This document shows, one piece after another, positions 44,821 through 64,000 of a stretch of 64,000 nucleotides of DNA. Both the position numbers and the translations under genes were made by a program. This DNA is from an uncultured Clostridia bacterium (lineage in GTDB: Bacteria > Bacillota > Clostridia > Christensenellales > CAG-138). The stretch covers positions 3,168 to 67,167 of the forward strand of contig CAMKES010000001.1 of the NCBI GenBank assembly GCA_946411635.1, in the 5' to 3' direction. The notes beneath the pieces were generated by a model. It saw only the letters and a program-made list of their open reading frames with translations, was not told where the DNA came from and did no database searches. Position 1 is the stretch's first letter; the number at the start of each line of letters is the position of its first letter.

Positions 44821-46020
44821 TCATTCCAGGGTGAAGAACGCCTGCTCGCCGTGTACGCCCACCACGTGCAGCACCGGCGTCTGCTCCGAGGGAAGCGGGA
44901 GCTTGATCGGCAGCTTCGGCGCGCAGTTCGTGTGCATCGCGCAGAAGACCGCGCCGTTCACGACGCCGGTCGCAGCGTACATCGGCGCGGATTCCTTATC
45001 GGAAAACATGGTTTTTTTGAGCTGAACGAAGCGCTTGTCGCCTTTCCGGATGATCTCGGCGTCGATCCTGCACGGCGTGCGGTCGACCGGATAGCGGATC
45101 GTCAGCGATTCGGGCGCGCTTTCGGTCAGCGTCGGTTCGCTCGTGATGCCGAGCTGGCGTCTGCGCAGCAGCGCGCACGCGACGGGGCTCTGATCGACGG
45201 AGATGAACTGCCGGCCGAGCTTCGTCGCGGCGGAGGCGGTCGTGCCGCTGCCGGAGAACAGGTCGAGCACCAGATCGCCGGGGGCGGAGGACGCCGCGAT
45301 GATGCGCTTCAGAAGCGCCTCGGGCTTCTGCGTCAGAAAGCCCGTGCGTTCGCGGTCCTTCTGCTGCAGATGCTCGATATCCGACCAGACGTCGGAGGGA
45401 TAGATCAGCGAATCCTCATAATAGGTGTAGGTCTTTCCGTTCGAGCGGATCGAGAAGCCGATGCGCCCGTCCTCGTCGATGAACCGCTTCATGTGGTTGC
45501 GGCGTTCGGGACCGCGCGGCGTGCCGACGGCCTTGATGTTGAAATAGACCTTTTTCGATTTGCGGTAAAAGAGGATCGTGTCGTGCTTTCTCGGATAGCA
45601 GCGCGTGGCGCGTCCGCCGGAACGGTACGCCCAGATGATCTCGTTCATGAAATTCGACTCGCCGAAGATCTCGTCGAGCAGGACGCGCGCCTTGTGCGAC
45701 ATGCGGTAGTCGAGGTGCAGATAGATCGAGCCCTGCGGATCCAGAAGCCGGTGACAGCCCCTTAAAATGCGCTCGAGCCATTTCAGATAGCTTTCCTCGT
45801 CGAGCTTGTCCTCGTACAAAACGACGGTCTGCGCCTGCTTGCCCTTGCCGATCCGCATCTTGAACGATTCGCCCGTGCGGAACGGGGGATCGAGGTAGAT
45901 CAGCCGGACGCCGTTCTCGTACCGTTCAAGCAGCCGGGTCAGCGCATCCTCCGCTTTCATCAGATAAAACGAGCCGTTGCCGCCCGCCGCATGGTGTTCC
46001 TCGGTGCAATATAAGCGCAT
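44821..46020 (-). CDS. Beta-class (N6-adenine or N4-cytosine) DNA methyltransferase with ~105-aa C-terminal extension
   Basis: Motif IV (LIYLDPPFRTG) precedes motif I (LVLDLFSGSGTTASAA). RBS GGAGG lies before the ATG at 46018-46020. Confidence 0.85.
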   Translation of the reverse strand: MRLYCTEEHHAAGGNGSFYLMKAEDALTRLLERYENGVRLIYLDPPFRTGESFKMRIGKGKQAQTVVLYEDKLDEESYLKWLERILRGCHRLLDPQGSIYLHLDYRMSHKARVLLDEIFGESNFMNEIIWAYRSGGRATRCYPRKHDTILFYRKSKKVYFNIKAVGTPRGPERRNHMKRFIDEDGRIGFSIRSNGKTYTYYEDSLIYPSDVWSDIEHLQQKDRERTGFLTQKPEALLKRIIAASSAPGDLVLDLFSGSGTTASAATKLGRQFISVDQSPVACALLRRRQLGITSEPTLTESAPESLTIRYPVDRTPCRIDAEIIRKGDKRFVQLKKTMFSDKESAPMYAATGVVNGAVFCAMHTNCAPKLPIKLPLPSEQTPVLHVVGVHGEQAFFTLE

Positions 46021-46044
46021 AGCCGCCTCCGAACCTTTTTTTTT

Positions 46045-46073
46045 ATTGTACAATATATTGTGTCGAAATACAA
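46045..46073 (-). promoter_or_regulatory. Methyltransferase promoter overlapped by two palindromes
   Basis: The minus strand reads TTGTAT-17 nt-TACAAT. The palindromes ATTGTACAAT (46045-46054) and ACAATATATTGT (46050-46061) overlap the -10 and the spacer. Confidence 0.5.
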
Positions 46074-46109
46074 GCGGAAAAGCCATATCTTGTTAAGAAA
46101 ATTGTGCGC

Positions 46110-46138
46110 TTGCGATGCGCCGCGCCGCGTGGTACAAT
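46110..46138 (+). promoter_or_regulatory. Promoter (extended -10) of the divergent wHTH-nuclease-like gene
   Basis: TTGCGA-17 nt-(TGG)TACAAT. Confidence 0.5.
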
Positions 46139-46163
46139 ACGGAAAAACGAAGGGGGAGCGAAG

Positions 46164-46931
46164 ATGGCGAGGATCGATCCGATCGAGCGGCGCATCTATC
46201 AGTGCATCTGCAAAAGCGAAGACGGCATCAAGGCACGTGAGATCGCAAAGAGCATCCGTACGGACCCGTCCGCGGTCAATCATTTTCTGTACGCGTCCCC
46301 GTTCATGAAGGAGCTGTGCTGGCAGGACGACGAGTACCGCTGGCACGGGCAGATCCCGCAGACGCGCCCGCATTACGGGCTTGCGGAGTTTTCCGGCTTC
46401 TATTCCTCGGTCAAAGAGTTTCTGGACATGGACGAGGCGCGCTTTCTGGCGCTTCTGAAGCTCGGCTGCGAGAACGTCGGGCGGAACCTGAACGACACGC
46501 GCGGCCTGTTCCATTCGTTTGCCGACGCGCGCGAAACGATGCGCACTCTCTTCCGCGACCTCAGGGAGTTCGGCTATCCCGCGGCGCTTTCGGACAACTG
46601 GGAGATCGTCTTCGAGCTGCGCATCAAAAAGTCGAAGCACATCCGCATCTACGCGGACGTGCTGCTGGTCACGAAGCGGCACGCGTTCTCGCTCGAGTTC
46701 AAGATGAAGGATACCATCGAGCAGGAGGAGGTCGACCAGTGCGCCAAGTACTGCGAATACCTCGACGTGATCTTCGGCGACGAGTACGAGATCGTGCCGG
46801 TGCTGGTGCTCACGAAGGCGCGGGACCTCTTTCGGGACGCAACGATCTCCGGCACGGACGCCGCGGTGCACGCCTGCTCCGGCGACATGCTCTACAACGT
46901 GCTGGACTACTACCTCGGCTTTATCCGGTGA
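46164..46931 (+). CDS. wHTH + PD-(D/E)xK-like nuclease-fold protein (candidate restriction endonuclease or controller-nuclease)
   Basis: N-terminus IERRIYQCICKSEDGIKAREIAKSIRTDPSAVNHFLY is winged-helix-like. The core FELRI..IRIYADVLLVTKRHAFSLEFKMK fits E..D-x13-E-x-K. RBS GGGGGAG. Confidence 0.55.
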   Translation: MARIDPIERRIYQCICKSEDGIKAREIAKSIRTDPSAVNHFLYASPFMKELCWQDDEYRWHGQIPQTRPHYGLAEFSGFYSSVKEFLDMDEARFLALLKLGCENVGRNLNDTRGLFHSFADARETMRTLFRDLREFGYPAALSDNWEIVFELRIKKSKHIRIYADVLLVTKRHAFSLEFKMKDTIEQEEVDQCAKYCEYLDVIFGDEYEIVPVLVLTKARDLFRDATISGTDAAVHACSGDMLYNVLDYYLGFIR

Positions 46932-51413: not shown

Positions 51414-51917
51414 TTATTCCTCCCCGTACAGCAGCGTAAACGATTCGTAATGATCGTCGGTGTAGTAGATCAGTCCGTCGTTGCTGAACACGATCCGCTT
51501 TTCGCCGCGGCGCTTCCTGCCGCGCGTGTCGATGTCGCATTCGGTGTATTTGCGATCCTTTTTCTTCGGCAGAAGTCCTTCGTAGTTCCCGAAGTATCCG
51601 CCGCCGATCGAGCAGCCCGGCGCGTACGGCTCCAGCGAACCGCCCGGCCAGCCGAGAGCTTCCGCCTGTTCCTTCGTGATGTAGTTTTTCGGCAGATGCC
51701 CGTAAAGATGGATGTACAGCGCGACCTCGTCCTTCGTCCAGTATTCGCCGTCCTCGGATACGGGACACGGCGTGTCGGTCGGTTCTTCGGTCGGCGCCTC
51801 GGTCGGCTCTTCGGTCGGCTCCGCGGGTTCGGGCGCGGTCTTTTTGACGCAGCCGAACAGCGACGCGAGCAGCAGAACGAGGAGCAGCAAACTCAGGATT
51901 CTTGCGTGTTTTTTCAT
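51414..51917 (-). CDS. Secreted or lipid-anchored barnase-type (microbial N1/T1 superfamily) ribonuclease
   Basis: Lipobox LASLFGC|V and a PTEEPTEA linker. The barnase-like core is ITKEQAEALGW..GCSIGGGYFGNYEGLLP..YTECDID..RGEKRIVFSNDGLIYYTDDHYESF. Confidence 0.8.
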   Translation of the reverse strand: MKKHARILSLLLLVLLLASLFGCVKKTAPEPAEPTEEPTEAPTEEPTDTPCPVSEDGEYWTKDEVALYIHLYGHLPKNYITKEQAEALGWPGGSLEPYAPGCSIGGGYFGNYEGLLPKKKDRKYTECDIDTRGRKRRGEKRIVFSNDGLIYYTDDHYESFTLLYGEE

Positions 51918-52061
51918 ATCGTTCCTCCGATACGGCTATTATACCACGCGCTCCGCCGGATAGGAAGACTTTTTTGCAGTCCGGTATATCGGCGGCTTTC
52001 GTATCGAAAAAAGCCCCGGAGGGATTCCGGAGACTTTAGCGTTTCAAGGGAAGACGGGGGA

Positions 52062-52460
52062 TCAGGCGTTTTGTCGATTTCGCTTTTCGTCGACCTTCTT
52101 CATGAACTTCTCGTACTGGATGACAAAACGCTCGTGTGTGCCTTCGCCGACCAAACCGAAGGGATCGAACACCCTGACGTCGAAGACCAGGCGCCTGCAA
52201 TCCACAAGCGTCAGTTCGGTTTCGCAGGTGACTGTGAGCCCCACGGGCGTCGCCGCGACGTGGCGGACGTTCAGCGCCGTGCCGACGGTTCCTTCGCCGG
52301 GTTCGAGATACGGCGCGACGCTTTTCCAGCACGTTTCCTCGATCAGCGCGATCATGGCGGGCGTGGCGAACACGTCAAGCTCGCCGCTGCCGACGGCGCC
52401 GGCGCACTTGTCTGTCGTTACCGTCAGTTCGATCTTTCCTTTGATTCCGGTTTCCAGCAT
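52062..52460 (-). CDS. Hotdog-fold thioesterase
   Basis: 132 aa. GSGELDVFATPAMIALIEETC..HVAATPVG..DCRRLVFDVRVFD pattern. RBS AAAGGAGA. Confidence 0.7.
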   Translation of the reverse strand: MLETGIKGKIELTVTTDKCAGAVGSGELDVFATPAMIALIEETCWKSVAPYLEPGEGTVGTALNVRHVAATPVGLTVTCETELTLVDCRRLVFDVRVFDPFGLVGEGTHERFVIQYEKFMKKVDEKRNRQNA

Positions 52461-52540
52461 AATGATCTCCTTTTCAAATGGATTGATGGCTGCATTATAC
52501 CATACGCCTGCCCGGAGAGCAACACAAACCGCCGAATGCA

Positions 52541-52581
52541 CCGGATCCGGTGTTGACAAATCCGGATCCGCATGCTATCAT
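52541..52581 (+). promoter_or_regulatory. Sigma-A promoter flanked by two copies of a CCGGATCCG(G) palindrome
   Basis: TTGACA (52553-52558)-17 nt-TATCAT (52576-52581). CCGGATCCGG lies at 52541-52550 and CCGGATCCG at 52562-52570 (21 bp apart), bracketing the -35. Confidence 0.6.
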
Positions 52582-52716
52582 CACCTTGCCTATAAAGAGT
52601 GCGCGAGAGACAAGCTCGTTGACCGCACGACAACCTGCCTTCGGGTAAGGTGCCAAAGCTTGACCGATGGGTTTGATCAAATCATGCTGCACCCGTCGGG
52701 AACGATGGGTGCTTTT
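52582..52716 (+). ncRNA. Structured leader with mutually exclusive antiterminator and terminator (riboswitch or attenuator of unassigned class)
   Basis: Long-range helix caccttgcc (52582-90) / ggtaaggtg (52644-52). Inner helix gtgcg/cgcac with cgag/ctcg. Terminator gcacccgtcg-GGAA-cgatgggtgc plus TTTT (52689-52716). An upstream copy of cgatgggt (52665-72) can pair with acccgtcg (52691-98) instead. Confidence 0.5.
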
Positions 52717-52757
52717 GTGTGCTTCGAATAGGCGAAAAACCAAAGGAGGACACAAAC

Positions 52758-53132
52758 ATGCGAACCATCAAAGACCTGCTCCGATACGAGGGCAAACTCA
52801 TCGTTTACTTCTCATCCAAAAACGTCTGTAAACTGTTTCAGCAAAGGGCCGAGGAGGAAGGCTTCACATACGGCGACGGCGTCAAGCCGACCGAACGGGA
52901 TACGACGGATCTGATTTGCATCACACACAACTTCACGATCTGCTGTCTCGGATGCAGCGGGCATCTTGCGTTCCGCACCGCGGGGTGGCGTTCACCGGTG
53001 AACGTGACGTACGTCGATTACGGAAAATACGCCGTCGGCGAGAAGAATTTCATCATCAAACGGGTCAAGGCGTCCGGGAAATTCCGGCGCGGGAATCCGA
53101 TCCGGCGATTGATGCAAAAAACCGCCGAATAA
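52758..53132 (+). CDS. Hypothetical protein (124 aa)
   Basis: AAAGGAGGA RBS. Translation begins MRTIKDLLRYEGKLIVYFSSKNVCKLFQQRAEEEGFTYGDG.. No family recognised. Confidence 0.6.
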   Translation: MRTIKDLLRYEGKLIVYFSSKNVCKLFQQRAEEEGFTYGDGVKPTERDTTDLICITHNFTICCLGCSGHLAFRTAGWRSPVNVTYVDYGKYAVGEKNFIIKRVKASGKFRRGNPIRRLMQKTAE

Positions 53133-53144
53133 GGGGGTGCGTGC

Positions 53145-53645
53145 ATGAAACTGTTTTATCAATTTGAAAAGCCGGATCCGCAGAAGATCATCGAAGGGGT
53201 AAAGCGTGCGTACGGCACGGCGCATCCGGAGCGGATCCATGGCTTCATGGGTACGTTCCTTGCGGCGCATCTTGACGTATTCGTTACGGATGAGGTCGCG
53301 GATCTGGCGGAACATCGCAATGAGTTCCGGGCGTTTCTGGACGACTGCATTACACGCTTCTATCACGACGACTACGGGTACGTTACATGGAGCGAATCCA
53401 TGAACAACGGAGAGAATCGTTACCTTAGCGGCTCGACGAGTTGGATGATTGCAAGATACGGCTTCCAATCGGAAAGAGCCATTGTGTTCGCAAACCTGTA
53501 TGATATGACGCTGATATCGTTCATAGAGGAAGACGTTTCGGAAATCTACGAGGAACAGTTCCGGAAAAGTCCGTATTGCACGAAAGGGACGCTTGACGAT
53601 CGGTTCCTGAACGAACTGAAGTACGTGAGACCGAAAACGAAATAA
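53145..53645 (+). CDS. Hypothetical protein (166 aa)
   Basis: AAGGGGG RBS, 12 nt after the previous stop. Translation begins MKLFYQFEKPDPQKIIEGVKRAYG and includes ITRFYHDDYGYVTWSES. No family recognised. Confidence 0.6.
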   Translation: MKLFYQFEKPDPQKIIEGVKRAYGTAHPERIHGFMGTFLAAHLDVFVTDEVADLAEHRNEFRAFLDDCITRFYHDDYGYVTWSESMNNGENRYLSGSTSWMIARYGFQSERAIVFANLYDMTLISFIEEDVSEIYEEQFRKSPYCTKGTLDDRFLNELKYVRPKTK

Positions 53646-53688
53646 AGGTTGTCAAGGGGACGGTTCTTTTGACACAAGGCCGTTTTGC

Positions 53689-53716
53689 GGCAAGGGTTTT
53701 GACCCTTGCCGTTTTT
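53689..53716 (+). terminator. Rho-independent terminator
   Basis: ggcaagggt-tttg-acccttgcc followed by GTTTTT. Confidence 0.75.
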
Positions 53717-54037
53717 CATTCCGAGCAAGCCGCGACGTTCGGGACGGATGCAGTTCCCGCTGTACTTCGGGCATGAAAAAAAGCCCCAAATCTGGGGCTT
53801 CTTTGGTACCCGGTACGGGTAAAAAATAGACCCAAAAGCACCTTTTTGCCCCCAAAACAGACCGTTTTTAAGGCAAAGCCACCATAAAAACCCGGCATCC
53901 CCCACGCGAAACTGCGGCTACTCCACTCCGCACTCCATTTTTGTAAATAGGGGATGTCCATTTCAGTTCCATTCTGTATTTGCATAAAAGAGTTTAGCAA
54001 GGATCCGCTTTTCTTTGAATGAATTGCCTCCACATGT

Positions 54038-54102
54038 TATCGGCAAAATATGAAAAACAATTGCAATATAATGTTGTAATTTTGCCGATACTGTGCTATA
54101 CT
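54038..54102 (+). promoter_or_regulatory. Fic-gene promoter embedded in a 12-bp inverted repeat
   Basis: TTGTAA (54074-79)-17 nt-(TGC)TATACT (54097-54102). TATCGGCAAAAT (54038-49) and ATTTTGCCGATA (54079-90) are perfect inverted copies, and the right arm overlaps the -35 and spacer. Confidence 0.5.
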
Positions 54103-54138
54103 ATACTTGACTTACGGGAAAGGCAGGAGAGAAAACGG

Positions 54139-55035
54139 ATGAAGTATCTGTCTGTAGCCGATGCGGCAAAGCGGTGGGGACTGTCCGAGCGCAGTGTGCG
54201 AAACTACTGTGCGCAGGGACGGGTCGACGGCGCGTTTCTGATGGGGAAGACATGGAACATTCCGGAAACGGCACAGAAGCCGGATCGCCTGAACAAGCAT
54301 TCAGAGCAGCCGTCGGATCTTTTGTCGCGCCTAAAAGTTGAGAAGAAGGCGAAACTGCACGGCGGGATCTATCATAAGATCCAGATTGATCTCACGTACA
54401 ACTCGAACCACATCGAAGGAAGTACGCTGACGCACGATCAGACGCGTTACATCTTCGAGACGAATACGATCGGCGCGGAAGGAACTGTCAAGGTGGATGA
54501 CGTCGTTGAGACGGCGAATCACTTTACGTGCATCGACATGATCATCGACAGTGCTGCTTATGCGCTGAGCGAGAGCTTCATCAAGCAGCTTCATGCGACT
54601 TTGAAAAACGGAACGTCTGATTCCCGTCAGGACTGGTTTGCTGTCGGCGAATATAAGCGCCTTCCGAACGAGGTGGGGGGCAAAGAGACAACGCCTCCGG
54701 AGCGCGTTGCCGCCGAGATGAAGAATCTTTTGAAGGAATACAACGCGATTGAGGAGAAGAGCTTTGACGATCTCCTTGCGTTTCATTACCGCTTTGAGTC
54801 GATCCATCCGTTTCAGGATGGCAACGGCCGTGTCGGACGTTTGATCCTGTTCAAAGAATGTTTGCGGAACGGCATCGTTCCGTTCATCATTACCGACGAT
54901 CTGAAGATGTACTATTATCGCGGCTTGAAGGAATGGAAGACCGAGCGCGGATATCTTCGTGACACCTGTCTTACCGCGCAGGATCGGTTCAAAAAAGTGC
55001 TGGAATACTTCCGGATCGACTGCGAACAGAAATAG
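54139..55035 (+). CDS. Fic-domain protein (AMPylase family) with N-terminal MerR/excisionase-type HTH
   Basis: HPFQDGNGRVGR matches the Fic motif HPFxxGNGRxxR. The N-terminus is LSVADAAKRWGLSERSVRNYCAQGRV. Confidence 0.85.
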   Translation: MKYLSVADAAKRWGLSERSVRNYCAQGRVDGAFLMGKTWNIPETAQKPDRLNKHSEQPSDLLSRLKVEKKAKLHGGIYHKIQIDLTYNSNHIEGSTLTHDQTRYIFETNTIGAEGTVKVDDVVETANHFTCIDMIIDSAAYALSESFIKQLHATLKNGTSDSRQDWFAVGEYKRLPNEVGGKETTPPERVAAEMKNLLKEYNAIEEKSFDDLLAFHYRFESIHPFQDGNGRVGRLILFKECLRNGIVPFIITDDLKMYYYRGLKEWKTERGYLRDTCLTAQDRFKKVLEYFRIDCEQK

Positions 55036-55379
55036 CATTTCTGCCGGTTTGTTTTACCGGGCCGTTTGTCATAATGATTTATAGAGGGAGAAATAGCCGT
55101 GCAAACGGCTGCCGAACTGCGCCCGTTAGTTTCTCTCTCGCTCCATACATCATGCACGATATCTCCGGACGCAGTTCATTTTTCCGAATCGGGAACACCA
55201 ACTGCAAAAACGACTGTCTCGCTTGCTGAGGCAGGCGTTTTTGTCTTTGGCGATCCCGGGTTGATTTTTGTTATCGTTTATGAAAAGACAGCATTATCAG
55301 TTTAGTATTGGGTATCTATTTCGCATGTTTTACCTCTTTTTGTTCATTATACACTTATTTGTGTTTTGTTTCCACAGAA

Positions 55380-55396
55380 ATTACAGTTTCATTACA
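55380..55396 (+). promoter_or_regulatory. Direct-repeat box ATTACA-N5-ATTACA upstream of the response-regulator gene
   Basis: ATTACAgtttcATTACA, then 32 nt, then TACACT (55429-34). ATG at 55463. Confidence 0.55.
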
Positions 55397-55462
55397 ACTG
55401 AGTCGCAGAATTGACGCGCGAAATATGGTACACTGAAGAGGAAAGACTCGAAGGAGCATACT

Positions 55463-56125
55463 ATGAAAAACAGGATTCTTGTGGTAGAGGACGACGCGGC
55501 GATCCGCGACGCGGTGCTTTTAAATCTGCAGTTTGCGGATTACGACGCCGTTGCGTTCGACGACGGCAGAAAAGCGGCGGATGCGCTCGAAGACGATCAC
55601 GCGTTCGACCTTGCGCTTTTGGACATCATGCTGCCGGGCATGGACGGATTTGAGTTGTTCGGGATCATGGAGCGCTTCGGCATTCCGGTGATCTACATGA
55701 CCGCAAAGACCGACTCCGCGTCCGAGATCAAAGGGCTTCGGGACGGCGCGGAGGACTATATCGTAAAGCCGTTCGATCCCTTAACGCTGATGGTGCGCAT
55801 CGAAAAAGTGCTGAAGCGCGTCGGCAAGTGGAACGCAGTCTATCGCGTCAAGGATATTGTCGTCAACACCGAAACGCATACGGTCACGAAGGGCGGCGAG
55901 TCGATCGAGCTGCAGCCGCTCGAATTCGACGTGCTTGTCGCGCTGCTGCGGCACAAGAACATGACCGTCTCGCGCGAGCGGCTGTTGAACGAAGTATGGG
56001 GCTTCGATTATCTCGGCGAAACGCGCATGGTGGACGTCAAAATCTCCGCGCTGCGCAAAAAGCTCGATCTGGAGGACGCGATCCGCTCCATTCATAAGCT
56101 CGGCTATCGGCTGGAGGATCGGTAA
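55463..56125 (+). CDS. OmpR/PhoB-family response regulator
   Basis: Receiver domain (ILVVEDD..DLALLDIMLPGMDG..KP) plus a winged-helix effector domain (LQPLEFDVLVALL..VDVKISALRKKL..GYRL). Confidence 0.92.
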   Translation: MKNRILVVEDDAAIRDAVLLNLQFADYDAVAFDDGRKAADALEDDHAFDLALLDIMLPGMDGFELFGIMERFGIPVIYMTAKTDSASEIKGLRDGAEDYIVKPFDPLTLMVRIEKVLKRVGKWNAVYRVKDIVVNTETHTVTKGGESIELQPLEFDVLVALLRHKNMTVSRERLLNEVWGFDYLGETRMVDVKISALRKKLDLEDAIRSIHKLGYRLEDR

Positions 56126-57505
56126 ATGAAGCTGTATCAACGCATTACGCTGCTTGTCTCTATCGTCTTGACCGTCGTCATCCTTGCCGTGTCGCTGTCA
56201 CTGCTGCTGTTTGCAAAGAATACGATCCTGTCGCTGTCGGTTGAGCAGGTGCAGCGGAAGCAGCAGACGCTGCGCACGTCGTTTTCCGAGATGGCGAACT
56301 ACTACGCGGCAAACAGTGATTCCGACGCCGTACATGACTCGCTGGTCCGCTACTGCTTCACGCGCTTTGCCGATCAGACCTCCGTGCTGATGCGGAACGG
56401 CGAGGCAGTGGTATCCGGCGTGACGGTCGACCCGTCGGTATACGTGCAGCAAAGCGATGACTACGGCGAAGCAGAGCCGGTTGCTGTTACGGTGCAGGGG
56501 CGACGGCTTCTGATCGCGGGAAGCAGCACGTCAGTCGGCGGCAAATCCTATGATGTGTATGTGGTCGAGGATGTCTCGGACGTTTACGATCGCATTTCGC
56601 GCATGGCGTGGATCTTTGCGGGCGTCAGTCTCGGGTCAATCGTGCTCGGAGCGGTTATCGTCACCCTGCTCGTCCGACGCAGTACAAGACCGATCACGAA
56701 GCTTTCCGACGCAGCAAAGGAGATTGCAGACGGCGCGTACGAAAAACGCGTTATGATCCGCACCAAGGACGAGATCGGAACGCTCGGCAAGGATTTCAAC
56801 CGCATGGCGGACGCGGTGGAAACGAAGATTTCGGAGCTTTCCGAGCGCAACGAACGGCAGCGCCTGTTTATCGGCGGCGTCACGCATGAATTCAAAACGC
56901 CCATGACCGGGCTGATCCTCCACGCCGGTCTTTTACGCCGCGCGAACCTTTCCGAGGACGAGCGCGACGCTTCTCTTGCCCATATTGAGACGCAAACGCA
57001 ATGGCTCGAACGGCTGACGCAGAACCTTTTGAAGCTTACGACCTCCGACGAGGAGATCGAATTACAAAGCGTCAATATTCCGGAATTACTGGACGCCGTC
57101 AAAGAAGGCGTCGAACCGAAGCTCAACGAGCGCGGTGCAGCGCTTTCCGTGCAATGCGAAACGGATACGCTTGTCCTGAACCCCGATCTGATGCGCTCGC
57201 TTCTCAACAATCTGATCGTCAATGCGGCAAACGCTTACGACGCAGATGCGCCCGAAAAGCCGATCCTGCTGACCGTAACGGGCAAGACCTTCTCGGTGTC
57301 CGATCGCGGCAGAGGGATTCCAAAGGAAGCGATCGACCGTATCTTCGAGCCGTTCTTCCGTGTCGACAAAAGCCGCAGCAAAAAACAGGGCGGCAGCGGC
57401 TTGGGACTTGCGCTTGTCAAAACGATCGCCGATGCCCACGGCGCAACGATTACCGTCGACAGCGAACCCGGCAAAGGCACGACGGTTTCGGTGACGCTGC
57501 CGTAA
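56126..57505 (+). CDS. Sensor histidine kinase (2 TM, HAMP, HisKA, HATPase_c)
   Basis: FIGGVTHEFKTPMTGL (H-box), N-box NLIVNAANAY, DRGRGIP, GGSGLGLALV. Starts directly after the regulator stop. Confidence 0.9.
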   Translation: MKLYQRITLLVSIVLTVVILAVSLSLLLFAKNTILSLSVEQVQRKQQTLRTSFSEMANYYAANSDSDAVHDSLVRYCFTRFADQTSVLMRNGEAVVSGVTVDPSVYVQQSDDYGEAEPVAVTVQGRRLLIAGSSTSVGGKSYDVYVVEDVSDVYDRISRMAWIFAGVSLGSIVLGAVIVTLLVRRSTRPITKLSDAAKEIADGAYEKRVMIRTKDEIGTLGKDFNRMADAVETKISELSERNERQRLFIGGVTHEFKTPMTGLILHAGLLRRANLSEDERDASLAHIETQTQWLERLTQNLLKLTTSDEEIELQSVNIPELLDAVKEGVEPKLNERGAALSVQCETDTLVLNPDLMRSLLNNLIVNAANAYDADAPEKPILLTVTGKTFSVSDRGRGIPKEAIDRIFEPFFRVDKSRSKKQGGSGLGLALVKTIADAHGATITVDSEPGKGTTVSVTLP

Positions 57506-57726
57506 TAGATTCTCCGGAGGAGAATTCACGTACAGGGATTCCGCAAAAGGTTGGTAGCGACCGTTTTTCGTTGTGAGGGCGCTTGCAACCGAGCAGAAAA
57601 ACCGAGCGTGACCTTTTGCGGAGAGGAGGAGCGGCGAGGCGGATGAGCGACGGTGTTTCATAATAAACGGAGTTTTTTTGTTCGCATAAACTCCGCCGCG
57701 AGCAAAGCTGAGCTCGCGACGACGAG
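57505..57726. repeat. Hairpin-dense intergenic element
   Basis: attctcc-gga-ggagaat, ccgcaaaaggt (57540s)..accttttgcgg (57610s) long-range inverted repeat, cggagttt..aaactccg, cgcgagc-aaagctga-gctcgcg. Confidence 0.4.
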
Positions 57727-57743
57727 ATTACATTTTCATTACA
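57727..57743 (+). promoter_or_regulatory. Direct-repeat box ATTACA-N5-ATTACA
   Basis: ATTACAttttcATTACA, then 31 nt, then TATGCT (57775-80). ATG at 57811. Confidence 0.55.
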
Positions 57744-57810
57744 CTTTGGTGCGGTTTTTTCCGCCGCCGTTCGGTATGCTTGATGCAGAAACCCGAAAAG
57801 GAGTGATTTC

Positions 57811-59247
57811 ATGAAAAAGCATATTTGTATCATTCTTCTTGCAGCACTGCTGCTTCTCTGCGCCTGTCAGCCGACGCCGGAAAATCCGATCGTGGTCGGG
57901 AAGGATCAGGATATCATGATCGGAAAAGCGGAGGAGGAAGCGGTTTACGTTTCTCTCACGCCCGATCCGGGTGAGCAGCGCGTGGATTGGGCGGATCGGC
58001 TCGGCGCACCGGAGCATTATACGGCGACGCTGACCAGCGCGAACGGACATCTGCATGTGGAAGTGGACGCGAACGTATATTTGCCGGATACGGAGCTTCC
58101 GATTGTCCGTGTTGAGCAGCAGCGGTTTACGGACGAGGACGCGCGCCGCTTTGCGACAGCGCTGCTGGGTGAGAATCCGCAGTGCATCGATCCGTATCAA
58201 TACAATAACCGAACGAAAGCCATGTATGAAGAGGATATCCGGCGGCGCATGGACGCGCTGGACAACTGGGAGGACTACGGCAGCATTGTTTATGACCAAT
58301 ATGAGACCAAAGCAGAGTTTCAGGCGGCGCTGAAAAAGCTGATGGAGGAAGCCGAGCATGCGCCGGACACGCTCGATACCTTTGCCCCGACCTATGAATG
58401 GCGGACGATGTATGAGGGCAAGGAGGACGGACTTTCGGAGACGCAGGATCAGATAATGGAACTGCTGACCCTGAATGCGGACGGAACGCGGACTGGACTG
58501 AATATAATACGGAGCACATCGGGAAGCTCGCTGCGCTATACGCGCAACTGCGAAGAGCCCGTTTCCTATCCGTTTGATTGCAGCCAATACCCGAACGAGC
58601 TGAAAACGACGGAGGTGCAGGCTATAGCTATCGCAGAGGAAACGCTTACAAAGATGGGGCTTACGCATCTTCGGTTCGCCTTGATCAAAAGCATCCGCAA
58701 CTATACCGGCGACGTCGCGCGGAAAAACAACCCCTACCGCCCATACTGGGCGATTGTGTTTACGCCCGAAGTGAACGGCGCGCAGATGACATACGCCTTT
58801 CAGAGAATGACGGAGGTCAGCGAATACAATCGCATGTGGCAAAACGAGTGCTGCTTTGTCATGGTGGACGACGACGGAATCGCCGCGCTTTCTTACAATA
58901 GCCCCTGCAGCGTATCGGAGACATCGGTTTCCGCCGCATCGTTGATGCCGTTTGAAAAAATCCGGGAGATTTTTGAAAAGATGGTGCTGATCGTCGACAA
59001 CGACGCGGACCTCGAGGGCATCGACGTGCGCTACCGTATCACAAACGTGCGGTTGGGGCTTGTCAGCATTCCGGAACAGAACGGTGATGGCGGGCTTTTG
59101 GTGCCTGCATGGGATTTCATCGGCATTTGGGAGTACGACGATCATGTGCCGGATGAGCAGAGAGAGCTTGGCAGAACGACAGACGAGACCTGGTCATATC
59201 TCACGATCAACGCCGTCGACGGCAGCATCATCAAACGTCAGCCGTGA
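57811..59247 (+). CDS. Paralogous lipoprotein 1 (478 aa), uncharacterised family
   Basis: Signal peptide and lipobox ..LLLLCAC|QPTPE. Conserved C-terminal block LMPFEKIREIFEKM..RLGLVSIPEQNGDGGLLVPAWDFIG..YLTINAVDGSIIKR. Confidence 0.85.
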   Translation: MKKHICIILLAALLLLCACQPTPENPIVVGKDQDIMIGKAEEEAVYVSLTPDPGEQRVDWADRLGAPEHYTATLTSANGHLHVEVDANVYLPDTELPIVRVEQQRFTDEDARRFATALLGENPQCIDPYQYNNRTKAMYEEDIRRRMDALDNWEDYGSIVYDQYETKAEFQAALKKLMEEAEHAPDTLDTFAPTYEWRTMYEGKEDGLSETQDQIMELLTLNADGTRTGLNIIRSTSGSSLRYTRNCEEPVSYPFDCSQYPNELKTTEVQAIAIAEETLTKMGLTHLRFALIKSIRNYTGDVARKNNPYRPYWAIVFTPEVNGAQMTYAFQRMTEVSEYNRMWQNECCFVMVDDDGIAALSYNSPCSVSETSVSAASLMPFEKIREIFEKMVLIVDNDADLEGIDVRYRITNVRLGLVSIPEQNGDGGLLVPAWDFIGIWEYDDHVPDEQRELGRTTDETWSYLTINAVDGSIIKRQP

Positions 59248-59276
59248 GGATTGCACGAACAGCCGGAGGGAAATCC

Positions 59277-60710
59277 ATGAAGAAACAAGTATTTATCATT
59301 CTGATAGCATCTCTTTTACTTCTTACCGCCTGTCAGCCCACGCCGGAGAGCCCGATCGTGGTCGGGAAGGATCAGGATATCATGATCGGAAAAGCAGAGG
59401 AGGATGCCGTATATGCCTCCGGAACATCCGAACCGGACGGCAAGACGGTCGACTGGTATGCGCGGCTCGGTGCGCCGGAGCATTACACAGCTTCTCTTGT
59501 CAGCGGCGGAGGACACCTGAAGGTTACGGTGGACGCGCCGATCGTTCTGCCGGATACGGAGCTTCCGATCGTCCGGATCACGCCGGTAAAGTTTTCCGAT
59601 GAGGACGCGCACCGTTTCGTGGCAGCATTTTTAGGCGATAATCCGCAGTGCGTCGATCCGTGGGGCGAAAACAACCGCACGCGGGCGTCTTACGAAAAAG
59701 AAATCCTCATGCGCAGAGATGCCTTGGAGCACTGGAACGAATACGGAAATCTGATTTACGGAGAGAACTTCGAAACGAGAGAGAACTTTGAACGATACCT
59801 TCAGAAATTGATGGCACAGGCGGTGAACGCGCCGGAACGGCCGGAGACGTTTGCACCGACCTATGAATGGGAGGAACCGCACGTTTGGACACCGGAAGGT
59901 GAGAAGAGAACCAACGACCGCTATCTGACGTTCTTGACGGTCAACGCGGACGGTTCGCAGTCAAGACTGGACATCTTCAGCAGCAGCGAATACGGAAACA
60001 GCAGCGTTCGCTACCAACGCGACATCGTCGACGACGTGCACTATCCCATTGACGGAGCGAAATGGCAGAATGAGCTGAATCTTTCCGAAGCGGACGCGCG
60101 CGCCGAAGCGGAACGCGTACTTGCAAAAATGGGAATCTCCCACCTCGGCTGTGCATTTGCAAAGAGCGTACGCATCTATCCGGCCGACGTACGGCTTGAC
60201 GGCGTTCCGTATCGCGCCTATTGGGCACTGATTTATACCCCTGCAGTCAACGGCGCAGAGACCACGTTTACACAGCAGTCCACGACGGAACCGAACGACT
60301 ATGCGCGCGAATGGGAATATGAGCGCTGCTACGTACTGGTGGACGACGGCGGCGTTGCGGGACTGTTTTACAACGACCCTTGCGTCGTGCAGGAGGTCAC
60401 CGTACCCGCCGCGACCCTGCTGCCGTATGAAAAGATTCTGGATATCTTTGAAAAGATGGTGCTGATCGTGGAAAACAACGCGGACCCGATGGACCGCGAC
60501 GAGCAATATTGCATCACGTCGGTACGGCTGGGCTTGGTCAGCATACCGGAGCAGAACGGCGAGGGCGGGCTTTTGGTGCCTGCGTGGGACTTTCTGGGCG
60601 ATCGGGTCGACGAAAACCGCGCTGCGTTCGTGTCAGACGAGCGGTACTCCTTCCTGACGATCAACGCGATCGACGGCAGCATCATCAAGCGCGGTTCGTG
60701 GGTCGGCTGA
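59277..60710 (+). CDS. Paralogous lipoprotein 2 (477 aa)
   Basis: ..LLLLTAC|QPTPESPIVVGKDQDIMIGKAEE, near-identical to the paralog 1 N-terminus. The gap to paralog 1 is 29 nt with no separate box. Confidence 0.85.
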   Translation: MKKQVFIILIASLLLLTACQPTPESPIVVGKDQDIMIGKAEEDAVYASGTSEPDGKTVDWYARLGAPEHYTASLVSGGGHLKVTVDAPIVLPDTELPIVRITPVKFSDEDAHRFVAAFLGDNPQCVDPWGENNRTRASYEKEILMRRDALEHWNEYGNLIYGENFETRENFERYLQKLMAQAVNAPERPETFAPTYEWEEPHVWTPEGEKRTNDRYLTFLTVNADGSQSRLDIFSSSEYGNSSVRYQRDIVDDVHYPIDGAKWQNELNLSEADARAEAERVLAKMGISHLGCAFAKSVRIYPADVRLDGVPYRAYWALIYTPAVNGAETTFTQQSTTEPNDYAREWEYERCYVLVDDGGVAGLFYNDPCVVQEVTVPAATLLPYEKILDIFEKMVLIVENNADPMDRDEQYCITSVRLGLVSIPEQNGEGGLLVPAWDFLGDRVDENRAAFVSDERYSFLTINAIDGSIIKRGSWVG

Positions 60711-60762
60711 TCGGACAGCGATCTTCTACTGCAATCGCATTTTGCATTTCCGACGCATTTTC

Positions 60763-60779
60763 ATTACAGTTTCATTACG
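60763..60779 (+). promoter_or_regulatory. Direct-repeat box ATTACA-N5-ATTACG
   Basis: ATTACAgtttcATTACG, then 31 nt, then TATGAT (60811-16). ATG at 60849. Confidence 0.55.
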
Positions 60780-60848
60780 CTTTCGTGAGGTTTTTTTCTC
60801 CGGATTCCGGTATGATGGATCAAAGATCCGAAAAAAAGGAGTGATCTC

Positions 60849-62231
60849 ATGAAGAAACGTGCTATCAGCATCCTTATTACAGCGCTCTTGCTGCTTTGCG
60901 CCTGTCAGCCGACGCCGGAGGAGGAAGCCGTTGTAAACAAGGCCGATCAGCAGCAGATGCTTTCCAATGCGGAGAAGCAGGACGAGCGCATGGAGATCGT
61001 GGATCTCTATGAACGTCTCGGCGCGCCGAAGGAATACAAGACGAGCCTCTCCGGCACGGAAGGACGTCTGCAGGTGGAAGTTGACGCAAAGGTGATCCTG
61101 CCGGAGGGCGAACTGCCGATCATTCGTGTTGAGCCGATCGGCTTCACCAAGAGCGACGTGCTCGGCTTTGCGGATGAGCTTTTACCGCCGGGTTCGGAGT
61201 TTGTGGAACCGATCTGGGTCGACGATCCGCGCGATTACGGAGATGACGAGGAGCACCGCCTGTACCTATATTCCAAGGGCTTCTATGCGCACGAGATCGA
61301 AAAGATGCGTTGGGCGATCGAACACTGGAACGACGGCGGAAGCAACCTCTATGACATGGACGATTCCACGCCCGCCGATGTGGAAAAGCGCATCAACGAA
61401 GCGCTGTATGAGCAGAGTCTCGCGCCGGACAAGCTTCCGCGCCTCGACCGGCAGAGTGTGGATATGGGATTGATCACCGCGACGGTCGATGATCTGACCT
61501 TTTCAAACGTCCACTGCATCAGCAACCCTTGGAACGGATTGACAGAAGAGCTTACATACTGCCGCAATTTCTTCCACAATCCGAACGTCACGAGTATGTG
61601 TAACATCCCGAACGAAATCCCGTATCGGGACGCGGAAGCGCAGGCGCAGGCGCTGATCAAAAAACTTCCCGTCGAAGGTTTTGTACTGAGCGCTTCATGG
61701 TCGGATATCTATGACGACGACTACTTCCGCGACATTCCGTGCCGGATGTTTGTTTTCACGCGCGCATTCGGCGGCGTTACGGAGACCGTGACCAATCAGG
61801 ATCAGACGTTTGAGGAATACAACCACTTCCGCGGGTACGAAAAAATCACGGTCACGGTGGATGCGGACGGGATCGCAGGCTTCAGCTATCAATATCCGTA
61901 CAGGATCGGGGAGACCGTCGTCGGACAGACGAATCTGCTGCCGTTCTCCGAGATCGAGAAGATCTTCAACCGCATGATCCTTGTTTACAATAACCACCTG
62001 ATGGACGAGTCGTTTGAGCATATCAGCACAAAATATGTCATTACCACGATCCGGTTGGGACTCGCCAATATCCCGGAAAAAGACTCGGAAACAGGTCTGC
62101 TCGTTCCGGCATGGGACTTTATGGGGTACCATCATTCTATCAATGAGGGCACAGACAACTTCACCAACGAGCTCGAATCGTTCCTGACGATCAACGCGAT
62201 CGACGGCAGCATCATCAACCGCGCGGGATAA
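60849..62231 (+). CDS. Paralogous lipoprotein 3 (460 aa)
   Basis: ..LLLLCAC|QPTPEEE. C-terminal block LLPFSEIEKIFNRM..RLGLANIPEKDSETGLLVPAWDFMG..FLTINAIDGSIINR. Confidence 0.85.
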   Translation: MKKRAISILITALLLLCACQPTPEEEAVVNKADQQQMLSNAEKQDERMEIVDLYERLGAPKEYKTSLSGTEGRLQVEVDAKVILPEGELPIIRVEPIGFTKSDVLGFADELLPPGSEFVEPIWVDDPRDYGDDEEHRLYLYSKGFYAHEIEKMRWAIEHWNDGGSNLYDMDDSTPADVEKRINEALYEQSLAPDKLPRLDRQSVDMGLITATVDDLTFSNVHCISNPWNGLTEELTYCRNFFHNPNVTSMCNIPNEIPYRDAEAQAQALIKKLPVEGFVLSASWSDIYDDDYFRDIPCRMFVFTRAFGGVTETVTNQDQTFEEYNHFRGYEKITVTVDADGIAGFSYQYPYRIGETVVGQTNLLPFSEIEKIFNRMILVYNNHLMDESFEHISTKYVITTIRLGLANIPEKDSETGLLVPAWDFMGYHHSINEGTDNFTNELESFLTINAIDGSIINRAG

Positions 62232-62439
62232 TTCCCGTATCCGAAAGACCTCCCGTACCGCATCGGCGGCGCGGGAGGTCTTTGTGCAGTATGGAACGTT
62301 TGCGCTTCCGTATGCGTCATTCTGAATAGAGGGATTGTCGGTTCGGCAGGGAGAAAAAAGCGGATCGGCGGCGCGGGAGGCCTTGCGTTTCGACCTCCGG
62401 CAAAGGGTCATAAATCGTCTGACAGGATTTTACATCTTT

Positions 62440-62494
62440 GTGACAATTCCGTGACATCTCTGTGACAACTCTGCAACAACTCTGCGACATCACT
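62440..62494 (+). repeat. Five helically phased 11-bp repeats (GYGACAnCTCT-like)
   Basis: GTGACA at 62440, 62451 and 62462, GCAACA at 62473, GCGACA at 62484. The period is exactly 11 bp. Confidence 0.8.
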
Positions 62495-62533
62495 CGTTTA
62501 TAGTAGAAGTCGATGAGGGGGGTCCGCGCATTC

Positions 62534-62550
62534 ATTACAAATCGATTACA
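62534..62550 (+). promoter_or_regulatory. Direct-repeat box ATTACA-N5-ATTACA
   Basis: ATTACAaatcgATTACA, then 31 nt, then TACGAT (62582-87). ATG at 62606. Confidence 0.55.
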
Positions 62551-62605
62551 ACGCGGAAACAACTTTTCTCACAAAATCGGCTACGATACAAAAGGAGAGA
62601 ACGAG

Positions 62606-63997
62606 ATGAAACGAATTGCGGTCCTGCTGACGTTCGTGCTGTTTCTGTGCGCCTGTCAGCCCACGCCGGAAGAGGAAGTCGTGATCCATAAGAACGAAGG
62701 CACGCTCGAACAGCAGCTTGCGGCGACGCCGGTTCCGGACTATTTGGAAGAAACCGGCGCGAACACCCTGCGTCTTTCGCTGAACGTCCCGGAACGGGTG
62801 CAGGAGAACTTCGACGGGAACGCCGTCGGCGGACATCTGTATATCGAGATGGACGCCGAGGTGGAGATCCCGAACGTGGAAAAGGTCTCGGTCCTGCGCG
62901 GACAGGTGGGTTACGAGCCGGAGAAGGCGGCGGAGCGCATCGCGAAGCTTCTTTTGGGCGACGGGCCCTATACCCGTCCCGGACACAGCGAACGGGCCTA
63001 TGCCGAAGTCCATCTGGCGTTCTATCAGAAATGGCTCGAAGCGCTGGATCAGAAGCCGTACGGCCCGGCTGCGGACTACGACGCCATCCGGAACGAAGTA
63101 CAGCAGCATCTGGACGCCTATGCCGAGAGCTATCGAATGGCGACCGGAGAAAACGACCATCCGAGTCAGCCGTGGACCGGATCCTTTGACGACGCCAAGG
63201 AAGCGATCAGCATCAGCAGCGGCGAAAAGGGAATCGGCATGCACAACGGCGACGCCAGTAACTTTACTTACGGCGCGGGCAGTCATCCGTCCTTCGGCGG
63301 CTGGATGGATCATCCCAGAGGCCCCCGGAACGAAGAAGAACGGCAATGGCTTCATAACGCTGCGGACTTTGCGAACGGCTTGGGCTTCGCGCGTGTGATC
63401 CCACAATATATCAATGACGCGGATGAAATGACCCGGATGCGATACAGCGTCGAGACCGGGTTTGAAAGCGGGTATAAGGTTTTCTCCCTGCTGCCCGTTT
63501 ACGAGGGCATTCCGGTTTACCCGTACGTGACCATGTACGGCTCCGACACCGGACGGCAGGCGGCGGGTGTTCCCTTTGCCCGCAATCTGGATCAGGAGGA
63601 GATCTTCGGCACGCTGTACAACGGCGAAGTGGTTCAGCTGCAGTGGAGAAGTCCCTTTACGGTCACACAGGTGGAAAACGAGAACGTGCCGCTGCTGCCG
63701 TTCGAGCGGATCATGGAGATCTTCAAGCGGCAGGTGTTCATGAGCGTTTATCTCGATGCGGGATACGATATGACGTACAAGGTCACGGGCATCCAGTTCT
63801 CCTATATGCGGGTGCAGGTTCCGAATTCCGACGAATACCGGCTGGTTCCCGTATGGGATTTCATCGGCTACGTGGTTTACGACTGGGAGGCGACGCCCGG
63901 CGAGAAAGCGATCAGTCAGGCCTTTTTCGAGCGTATGTCCATCTTGACGATCAACGCCGTGGACGGCAGCGTCATCGACCGGTATCTCGGCTATTGA
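62606..63997 (+). CDS. Paralogous lipoprotein 4 (463 aa, most divergent)
   Basis: ..VLFLCAC|QPTPEEE. C-terminal block LLPFERIMEIFKRQ..RLVPVWDFIG..ILTINAVDGSVIDR. The stop is 3 nt before the window end. Confidence 0.85.
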   Translation: MKRIAVLLTFVLFLCACQPTPEEEVVIHKNEGTLEQQLAATPVPDYLEETGANTLRLSLNVPERVQENFDGNAVGGHLYIEMDAEVEIPNVEKVSVLRGQVGYEPEKAAERIAKLLLGDGPYTRPGHSERAYAEVHLAFYQKWLEALDQKPYGPAADYDAIRNEVQQHLDAYAESYRMATGENDHPSQPWTGSFDDAKEAISISSGEKGIGMHNGDASNFTYGAGSHPSFGGWMDHPRGPRNEEERQWLHNAADFANGLGFARVIPQYINDADEMTRMRYSVETGFESGYKVFSLLPVYEGIPVYPYVTMYGSDTGRQAAGVPFARNLDQEEIFGTLYNGEVVQLQWRSPFTVTQVENENVPLLPFERIMEIFKRQVFMSVYLDAGYDMTYKVTGIQFSYMRVQVPNSDEYRLVPVWDFIGYVVYDWEATPGEKAISQAFFERMSILTINAVDGSVIDRYLGY

Positions 63998-64000
63998 GGA

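Follow-up and report, generated by a model that had tools for sequence, protein, structure and literature searches.

A 64,000-nt stretch of DNA from an uncultured Clostridia bacterium (contig CAMKES010000001.1, positions 3,168 to 67,167, forward strand; hereafter the window) ends in four tandem genes, P1 to P4, for lipoproteins of the DUF6034 family. They are preceded by a two-component system (TCS) consisting of an OmpR-family response regulator (RR) and a sensor histidine kinase (HK). An earlier interpretation based on the letters alone (the sequence-only reading) had noticed the four same-strand open reading frames (ORFs) and suspected that the family was DUF6034. The ORFs were found where it had placed them and the name was correct, as PF19499 (DUF6034) matches P1-P4 over their full length, in each case above the Pfam gathering score of 27 bits. 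The genes concerned are:

55463..56125, + strand: OmpR-family response regulator, 220 aa; Pfam domains Response_reg and Trans_reg_C
56126..57505, + strand: sensor histidine kinase, 459 aa; first transmembrane segment (TM1), extracellular loop of ~137 aa, TM2, HAMP, HisKA and HATPase (Pfam)
57811..59247, + strand: P1, DUF6034 lipoprotein, 478 aa, subfamily B; Pfam E 1.2e-65, 222.7 bits
59277..60710, + strand: P2, DUF6034 lipoprotein, 477 aa, subfamily B; Pfam E 5.2e-60, 204.1 bits
60849..62231, + strand: P3, DUF6034 lipoprotein, 460 aa, subfamily K; Pfam E 6.1e-57, 194.0 bits
62606..63997, + strand: P4, DUF6034 lipoprotein, 463 aa, subfamily U; Pfam E 1.9e-43, 149.5 bits

The start of P2 is most likely the MKKQ codon at 59277 (the mechanical ORF opens at GTG 59244) and that of P4 most likely MKRIAV at 62606 (mechanical ORF from 62513). 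Because P2 starts 30 bp after P1, these two genes are probably co-transcribed. The window ends 3 nt past the P4 stop codon. Alignment of the four paralogs gave identities to P1 of 57% (P2), 40% (P3) and 30% (P4), and the ..AC-QPTPE context described earlier was invariant in all of them. The C-terminal blocks LLPF..I..IF, LVP.WDF.G and LTINA.DGS.I.R were likewise present in all four proteins, and P4 alone deviates, in the RLGL block. The statement that P1 and P2 are nearly identical over their first ~45 residues was slightly overstated (8 differences in 46 positions), but it is accurate for residues 18-42, where only one difference occurs. The mature lipoproteins are acidic, with a pI of 4.4-4.7. 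No NCBIfam model matches P1-P4, and no enzymatic family was found in Pfam, NCBIfam, PDB sequence or PDB fold (Foldseek) searches.

To place these proteins within their family, a profile search was carried out against 1.84 billion cluster representatives, clustered at 50% identity, which returned 5,812 DUF6034 clusters at E <= 1e-3 and 2,614 at E <= 1e-30. The named sources were nearly all metagenome-assembled genomes (MAGs) labeled Clostridia, Christensenellales/Christensenellaceae, Oscillospiraceae or Lachnospiraceae, many of them from rumen or gut. A genome scan with the four-paralog alignment found the loci closest to the window array in MAGs labeled Clostridia or Christensenellales, mostly from rumen. 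All 57 homologs in the DUF6034 family alignment (profile A2) match PF19499, and the lipobox cysteine, Cys19, is invariant among them, confirming its proposed conservation in orthologs. In a larger set of 202 full-length members from 75 loci, the lipobox is present in nearly all, and the cysteine is clearly absent only in the copies of two loci (L070 and L077). The anchor is a cleavable lipoprotein signal peptide with lipobox, and there is no stable transmembrane anchor. The tether that follows the lipobox, C-Q/V-x-T-P-[E/D], is kept family-wide. Conservation is high at residues 1-40 (signal peptide, lipobox and tether), 81-100, 371-390, 411-440 and 461-478, and poor at residues 41-60, 191-270, 291-310 and 441-460. 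Mean pairwise identity is 0.18 in the variable middle versus about 0.4 at both ends.

Linkage of the lipoproteins to a TCS was then assessed by calling ORFs in all loci and searching them with the DUF6034 hidden Markov model (HMM) and with the window RR and HK. In 55 of 77 assessable DUF6034 arrays, an RR and HK of the same strand directly precede the lipoprotein genes, and the linkage is thus conserved in other genomes. Arrays lacking them are mostly secondary sub-arrays or stand next to another cassette, and several loci hold two cassettes in series. Copy number is one in Lachnospiraceae-labeled loci and mostly two to eight in loci labeled Christensenellales or Oscillospiraceae. The RR has its best NCBIfam matches to MtrA, PhoB and CseB, all below the cutoffs; for HK and RR together, the top family matches include WalK, MtrB and MtrA, which are far below the cutoffs and generic to OmpR-type systems.

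A hydropathy scan places the beginnings of the two TM segments of the window HK near residues 9 and 165. Across 63 cassette HKs, the extracellular loop has a median length of 137 aa (10th-90th percentile, 128-146), and a homolog search with the HK sensor region recovered three fragments only. In 50 cassettes the HK-adjacent DUF6034 protein was compared with the HK extracellular loop. The tether (residues 19-45) co-varied with the loop when the kinase core was controlled for (partial rho 0.25, Mantel p 0.001), and five other DUF6034 segments showed no co-variation in these cassettes. This comparison of sequences provides a modest hint that the tether contacts the kinase.

The window contains exactly four copies of the direct repeat ATTACA-N5-ATTAC, all on the + strand, where 0.00 would be expected, and a scan allowing one mismatch found no further sites. 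An 11-bp phased direct repeat is the classic layout for OmpR/PhoB-type regulators, and the RR of the cassette probably binds these boxes. The candidate regulatory features are:

55380..55395, + strand: putative RR box 1, ATTACAGTTTCATTAC, 68 bp before the RR start codon
57727..57742, + strand: putative RR box 2, ATTACATTTTCATTAC, 69 bp before P1, with a -10-like TATGCT 32 bp downstream
60763..60778, + strand: putative RR box 3, ATTACAGTTTCATTAC, 71 bp before P3, with a -10-like TATGAT 32 bp downstream
62247..62286, + strand: terminator-like hairpin after P3, GACCTCCCG ... CGGGAGGTC then TTTGTG, read from the sequence
62419..62489, + strand: seven (G/T)T(G/T)ACA-like hexamers in a phased array, spaced 10-11 bp apart; TRF period 11, 4.4 copies, score 54
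62534..62549, + strand: putative RR box 4, ATTACAAATCGATTAC, 57 bp before P4

A counterpart of box 1 was found upstream of the RR genes in three loci (L008, L009 and L010), and the box 4 variant also precedes P4-type genes in L006, L007 and L061. Of 44 boxes outside the window, 34 are found no more than 120 bp upstream of the start of an RR or DUF6034 gene, typically at 56-72 bp, and in four loci a box precedes the permease gene described below. More distant lineages carry related 11-bp-phased repeats (GATTACG/GTTTACA, two copies of TTTACAA, and AATAAGA/ATTAACA). The phased hexamers, in the region 62419-62505, are followed by a -10-like TTTATAGT just upstream of box 4; their layout is kept upstream of the equivalent gene in L006 and L007 and is absent in L061. 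They may represent extra RR sites or a second promoter. The hairpin after P3 is tentative, because a simple terminator scan did not report it. This arrangement suggests autoregulation of the TCS and its control of at least three transcription units, namely P1-P2, P3, and P4 onward.

The boxes mark the lipoprotein genes as regulated targets, which is also what one would expect if the proteins were effectors only. In that case, the main rival to the interpretation developed below, TCS-induced lipoproteins would bind bacteriocins or antimicrobial peptides and shield the membrane from them as LanI does, aided by an exporter and with no part in signaling, and the array would broaden the spectrum. 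High copy number suits effectors, and the acidity of the mature proteins is in keeping with such a role. We consider this explanation unlikely on balance, though with a substantial chance of being right, and return to it where the transporter, the fold and the domain fusions bear on it.

That the array might continue past the window had been suspected, and this was confirmed by a metagenome contig from a sister strain, which holds the same locus at 98.8% nucleotide identity and contains 11 DUF6034 paralogs (locus L080, reading past the window end). Eight DUF6034 genes (D1-D8) are followed there by a 266-aa lipoprotein, a 586-aa membrane protein and D9. Next come a 212-aa ATP-binding cassette (ABC) ATPase, a CARDB-domain protein of 455 aa that has a signal peptide and is anchored in the membrane at its C-terminus, and finally D10 and D11. 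P1-P4 are accordingly the first four genes of an eleven-DUF6034 locus with RR and HK, to which the sister strain adds an ABC exporter and the CARDB protein. The P4 equivalent opens a tightly packed run of genes that extends past the window end; because no further box was found in the sister strain, the P4 unit may run through D11, ABC genes included.

Two further observations come from the sister strain. The 266-aa lipoprotein (L080 11529-12329) combines a DUF6034-type signal peptide and an AC-VPTPEE tether with an unrelated body, for which no Pfam match and no homolog in the other 75 loci were found; the shared tether suggests, on sequence grounds, that the tether is a transferable module. 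Furthermore, the 3' end of the kinase gene (window 57045-57725 against L001 26-681) is 93.3% identical between strains and the HK-P1 spacer (57507-57725) does not align, whereas the lipoprotein array is 98.8% identical, which suggests that a recombination boundary separates the TCS from the array.

Pairwise identity among the array paralogs is 22-56%. Clustering of the 202 full-length members showed that the arrays are built from old paralog lineages, which recur across species with their order partly kept, for example C-B-L-G in both L004 and L006. The array is therefore not a recent amplification, contrary to what its tandem arrangement had first suggested. Synonymous and non-synonymous differences between the strains numbered 5/0 in P1, 11/1 in P2, 13/9 in P3 and 17/6 in P4, those of the non-synonymous type in P3 lying mostly in the signal peptide. 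The strain-level comparison was used instead of paralog dN/dS because synonymous sites were saturated at 24-57% amino-acid identity. As the changes are mostly synonymous, purifying selection is indicated, and the diversifying selection proposed for the middle region shows no sign of being ongoing.

These results bear on the idea that the lipoproteins form a surface-variation or decoy set, which evades or absorbs phages or host factors. Tandem paralogs anchored at the cell surface, with middles so much less alike than their ends, would fit such a set. The age of the paralog lineages, recurring across species in partly kept order, and the mostly synonymous strain-level changes speak against it, and the region showed no inversion or repeat machinery. 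A viral fold library gave no credible match for the lipoprotein and no PADLOC model matched, so that nothing supports the phage-decoy role suggested by the sequence-only reading. We consider any variation or decoy function very improbable.

To identify genes that accompany the arrays, all other ORFs in the loci were clustered. The only widely recurrent neighbors were a membrane-protein family, one or two ABC ATPases, a C-terminally anchored CARDB/DUF11 protein, and an FtsX set, in which Lachnospiraceae-type loci pair an FtsX permease with a LolD/FtsE-like ATPase. Permease/ATPase genes lie inside the array or within 1.5 kb after it in 37 of 50 assessable loci, and in L080 and L078 the ABC genes are inside the array. 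The best NCBIfam match of the first ATPase is the lantibiotic-protection family TIGR03740 (181.4 bits in L080, 178.9 in L043; cutoff of 309.75 bits not reached), followed by drrA at about 141-142 bits. The ATPase thus groups with exporter-type families (lantibiotic protection, DrrA and GldA). Its permease partner is a fused 586-aa protein in the sister strain (L080 12438-14198) and elsewhere two proteins of about 250-300 aa. In a crude hydropathy scan the fused protein showed 11 hydrophobic segments and the two separate proteins of L043 showed 4 and 6, and a layout of 6+6 TM segments is therefore only partly supported. The permease (28 members, alignment A4) had no Pfam, NCBIfam or PDB sequence match even at E <= 10.

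Gram-positive substrate-binding proteins are lipoproteins and often occur as paralog sets beside ABC genes. With ABC genes inside the array of the sister strain, it could thus be argued that the DUF6034 proteins deliver nutrients to an ABC importer. The grouping of the ATPase with exporters, a fold that is not of the periplasmic-binding-protein type and the lack of any detected importer permease family all contradict this, and we give the idea almost no credence.

The parallel to immunity operons is closer. The combination of TCS, lipoprotein, permease with two transmembrane domains and LanF-like ATPase resembles LanRK-LanI-LanFEG and Cpr-type operons, in which LanI binds the lantibiotic and some operons have an extra lipoprotein (PMC5786555). 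This favors the effector-only explanation. Against it, Pfam and NCBIfam scans revealed no similarity of the DUF6034 proteins to any LanI family, no bacteriocin biosynthesis genes recur near the loci, and the permease is not LanE/G-like by sequence.

To learn more about the fold, structure models were analyzed. The AlphaFold model of P1 (pLDDT 90.5, pTM 0.87) begins with a signal helix, a disordered tether (residues 20-30) and a beta-beta-beta-alpha N-domain, which are followed by a three-helix insert (136-182) and three helix-plus-sheet modules, the last two ending in VDDDG- and INAVDGS-type strands. Grouping these as three PepSY-like modules is our own reading of the predicted secondary structure, made without coordinates. 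Among the 50 Foldseek matches listed for P1 against the PDB, two were credible and nothing was enzymatic. The first was 5COZ (E 4.6e-10), an uncharacterized Eubacterium rectale protein (EUBREC_2869) for which a literature search gave only an unrelated methods preprint; the second was the C-terminal domain of YpeB, 5BOI (E 1.6e-3, prob 1.00, TM-score 0.40 normalized to target). The P4 model (pLDDT 75) keeps the N-domain, helical hairpin and C-terminal modules, and its confidence drops exactly in the variable middle. Its only significant PDB match was YycI, 2O3O, described as 'sensor histidine kinase regulator' (E 2.4e-5, prob 1.00). As a match to a kinase regulator, it would point to signaling and away from an effector-only role.

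In a permissive scan with sequence models, the PepSY HMM (PF03413) matched weakly in 2 of 57 members (best E 0.007) and in none of P1-P4 at E <= 0.01. The YycI/YycH HMMs (PF09648/PF07435) gave one weak YycI match (1 of 57 members, E 2.8e-4) and matched none of P1-P4, and PDB sequence searches with profiles A2 and A3 returned only coiled-coil noise. The PepSY-like C-terminus suggested earlier is thus made plausible at the fold level by the match to 5BOI, with HMM matches to PepSY and YycI that are weak and sub-threshold. Judging from the models, a fold-level relationship to PepSY/YycI is plausible, family membership not being established. Overall, the models suggest that in a DUF6034 protein a lipid-anchored tether (C-Q/V-x-T-P-E ... 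VV.K) leads into a small N-domain, and then into a helical hairpin and PepSY/YycI-like alpha+beta modules.

The fold also raises the question of whether the proteins regulate or inhibit extracytoplasmic hydrolases or proteases, in the manner of PepSY propeptides or YpeB-SleB, as part of a WalRK/MtrAB-like envelope homeostasis. PepSY domains inhibit M4 peptidases and YpeB has been reported to inhibit SleB (PMC4282423), so the similarity to the YpeB C-terminal domain would suit such a function, as would the presence of WalK, MtrB and MtrA among the best HK/RR matches. Those matches are, however, as distant and generic as stated above. No hydrolase or peptidase gene recurs nearby, the recurrent neighbors being ABC components, the CARDB protein and FtsX, and eleven paralogs with variable middles are ill-suited to a few housekeeping hydrolases. 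We therefore regard this explanation as improbable. A role in spore germination (YpeB/SleB) was rejected, as the loci contain no such gene context.

In other genomes, DUF6034 is fused to a membrane protease. The best 150 DUF6034 representatives were screened for fusions. In four clusters, with proteins of 837-873 aa, a BlaR1-type Peptidase_M56 domain (E 1e-45 to 6e-54) precedes a full DUF6034, and in a fifth (P0307, 638 aa) the M56 domain is partial (E 5.9e-25). TACQPTPE is retained at the junction, where what had been the signal peptide now acts as the membrane helix that joins the two domains. A gene for a BlaI-type repressor precedes each of the fusion genes (fusion proteins P0316, P0348, P0353 and P0365, in loci L083-L086). 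Tandem arrays of two to four BlaI + M56-DUF6034 units were observed in L083 (7613-14215), L084 (1014-8700) and L086 (150-11043). Neither M56 nor BlaI genes occur in the window itself. BlaR-like proteins carry their extracellular sensing domain at the C-terminus, and these domains vary in kind (PMC13492132). DUF6034 occupies this position and is therefore used as a sensor domain in a well-understood signaling architecture, which argues against an effector-only role.

Based on these results, we propose that the DUF6034 lipoproteins belong to a module for envelope stress or antimicrobial resistance, in which they bind a ligand as accessory sensors or as capture proteins, a proposal that we judge about equally likely to prove right or wrong. 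The 'recognition or protection module' of the sequence-only reading remains the best description of the locus and is strengthened by the RR boxes, the embedded ABC genes and the BlaR1-type fusions; a role as sensor or HK accessory is favored by the evidence no less than passive protection. According to this proposal, the lipoproteins would bind an extracellular ligand, mainly via the variable middle module, and pass this information to the adjoining membrane transducer. Here the transducer would be the kinase, contacted in the manner of YycH/YycI with WalK, and elsewhere the fused BlaR1-type M56 protease. The phosphorylated RR would then bind ATTACA-N5-ATTAC and raise transcription of its own operon, the lipoprotein genes and the ABC exporter. 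The paralogs would cover a range of specificities and, like LanI, may in addition sequester the ligand, with the exporter, whose presumed substrate it would be, removing it. The likeliest ligands would be envelope-targeting compounds, with bacteriocins or antimicrobial peptides as the leading candidates because of the LanF-like ATPase and the Cpr-like layout.

Several points weigh against this proposal. A few arrays have no adjacent TCS, 13 of the 50 assessable loci have no ABC genes, and the co-variation signal is modest and may reflect lineage structure. YycI is absent from the 50 P1 matches listed, its match coming from the lower-confidence P4 model. By family models the permease is not LanE/LanG or ABC-2 type, and with the permease unmatched and the ATPase below the TIGR03740 cutoff, it is architecture by itself that carries the link to antimicrobial peptides. 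The literature searched does not mention DUF6034. High copy number is more simply explained by a regulated effector, and we know of no precedent for eleven accessory proteins serving one kinase. Finally, YycH and YycI, which are co-transcribed with walRK and regulate WalK, are reported to reach it most probably through their own transmembrane helices (PMC7355866). As DUF6034 has only a lipid anchor, any contact with the kinase must use the extracellular loop.

A more far-reaching version of the accessory-sensor proposal, which we put forward tentatively and think unlikely as it stands, is a combinatorial receptor repertoire. Interchangeable lipid-anchored co-sensors would dock by their common tether on one HK, many to one, and the same module would alternatively be hard-wired to BlaR1-type proteases. 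To our knowledge, a many-to-one co-sensor architecture on a single HK has not been described before; if true, it would be widespread in gut and rumen Clostridia.

DUF6034 as a cataloged domain of unknown function and accessory proteins of two-component systems as a kind are already known. New relative to the literature searched are the RR-HK-DUF6034(n)-ABC placement, the candidate operator, the eleven-fold expansion, the BlaR1-type fusions and the unclassified permease. DUF6034 thereby gains a testable role as an extracellular sensing or accessory part of histidine kinases and BlaR1-type proteases. If correct, it would be the third example of a kinase-accessory envelope protein, after YycHI and LpqB, and the first to be massively expanded. 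It could explain how uncultured gut anaerobes sense and resist the antimicrobial peptides of competitors or other envelope stresses, and the box, RR and HK could possibly be developed into a portable inducible system once the ligand is known.

Other features were recorded upstream in the window. A gene for a Fic/DOC-domain protein with an N-terminal helix-turn-helix (54139-55035, + strand) lies immediately upstream of the TCS promoter region. Further upstream, a SAM riboswitch (52587-52711, + strand; Rfam RF00162, 54.9 bits) directly precedes two small ORFs (52719-53132 and 53145-53645) without Pfam matches, an unusual cargo for an S-box leader. A barnase-type ribonuclease (51414-51917, - strand; PF00545, E 3e-20) carries a lipoprotein-like signal peptide (..LFGC), and an N6/N4 DNA methylase (44821-46086, - strand; PF01555, E 8.5e-49) is adjoined by an ORF without a Pfam match (46104-46931). 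G+C is about 0.59-0.66 over most of the window and falls to 0.51-0.56 from about 52 kb, TCS and array included. The part from about 52000 to 64000 may thus be a segment of distinct composition, although GC3 in the DUF6034 genes remains high (0.68-0.73).

Comparison with known systems reveals partial likenesses. YpeB, PepSY repeats and 5COZ share with DUF6034 repeated alpha+beta modules that end in a (V/I)(D/N)A.DG..I strand motif, but the loci contain no spore-germination context, SleB partner or M4 peptidase, and 5COZ has no sequence-level relation to DUF6034. The MtrAB-LpqB system of Actinobacteria is a conserved three-gene unit in which RR and HK are joined by a lipoprotein modulating the kinase from the outer face of the membrane. 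The best NCBIfam matches here include MtrA and MtrB, though far below the cutoffs; no LpqB-type domains were detected with Pfam, the phylum is another one, and LpqB is single-copy.

Lantibiotic loci have a TCS whose HK has an extracellular loop, one nucleotide-binding domain (NBD), two 6-TM domains that are separate or fused, and sometimes a lipoprotein, under TCS regulation (PMC5786555). Both LanRK-LanI-LanFEG (e.g. nisin) and CprABC-CprRK of C. difficile resemble the present locus in the adjoining TCS with an HK extracellular loop, the lipoprotein and the NBD, and the ATPase has a lantibiotic-protection subunit as its best family match. They differ in that this ATPase does not reach the family cutoff, no LanE/G or ABC-2 model fits the permease, and DUF6034 is unrelated to NisI/SpaI by sequence. 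Biosynthetic genes are absent near DUF6034 loci, eleven lipoproteins replace the single one and are joined by a CARDB-anchored protein, and Lachnospiraceae-type loci add a second, FtsX/LolD-like transporter.

In the BlaR1/MecR1 comparison, a complete DUF6034 stands C-terminal to M56 and beside BlaI in other genomes, where BlaR1 has its extracellular sensing domain. DUF6034 is not a penicillin-binding transpeptidase domain, and in the window it occurs as a separate lipoprotein next to a kinase. The M56-DUF6034 combination is not among the architectures with at least 100 entries named in the legend of Fig. 7 in PMC13492132.

With YycH/YycI, the window and 55 of the 77 arrays share the order of RR, HK and then extracytoplasmic accessory protein(s). 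The extracellular bodies of YycH and YycI measure 427 and 250 aa and have a common alpha+beta fold (PMC7355866); the DUF6034 proteins likewise have large extracellular bodies, for which the match of the P4 model to 2O3O suggests a possibly similar fold. The window kinase differs from WalK in its architecture and its lack of an essential-gene context. YycH and YycI are anchored by a transmembrane helix and DUF6034 by a lipid, and whereas YycH and YycI are single-copy, up to 11 paralogs occur here together with RR boxes and embedded ABC genes.

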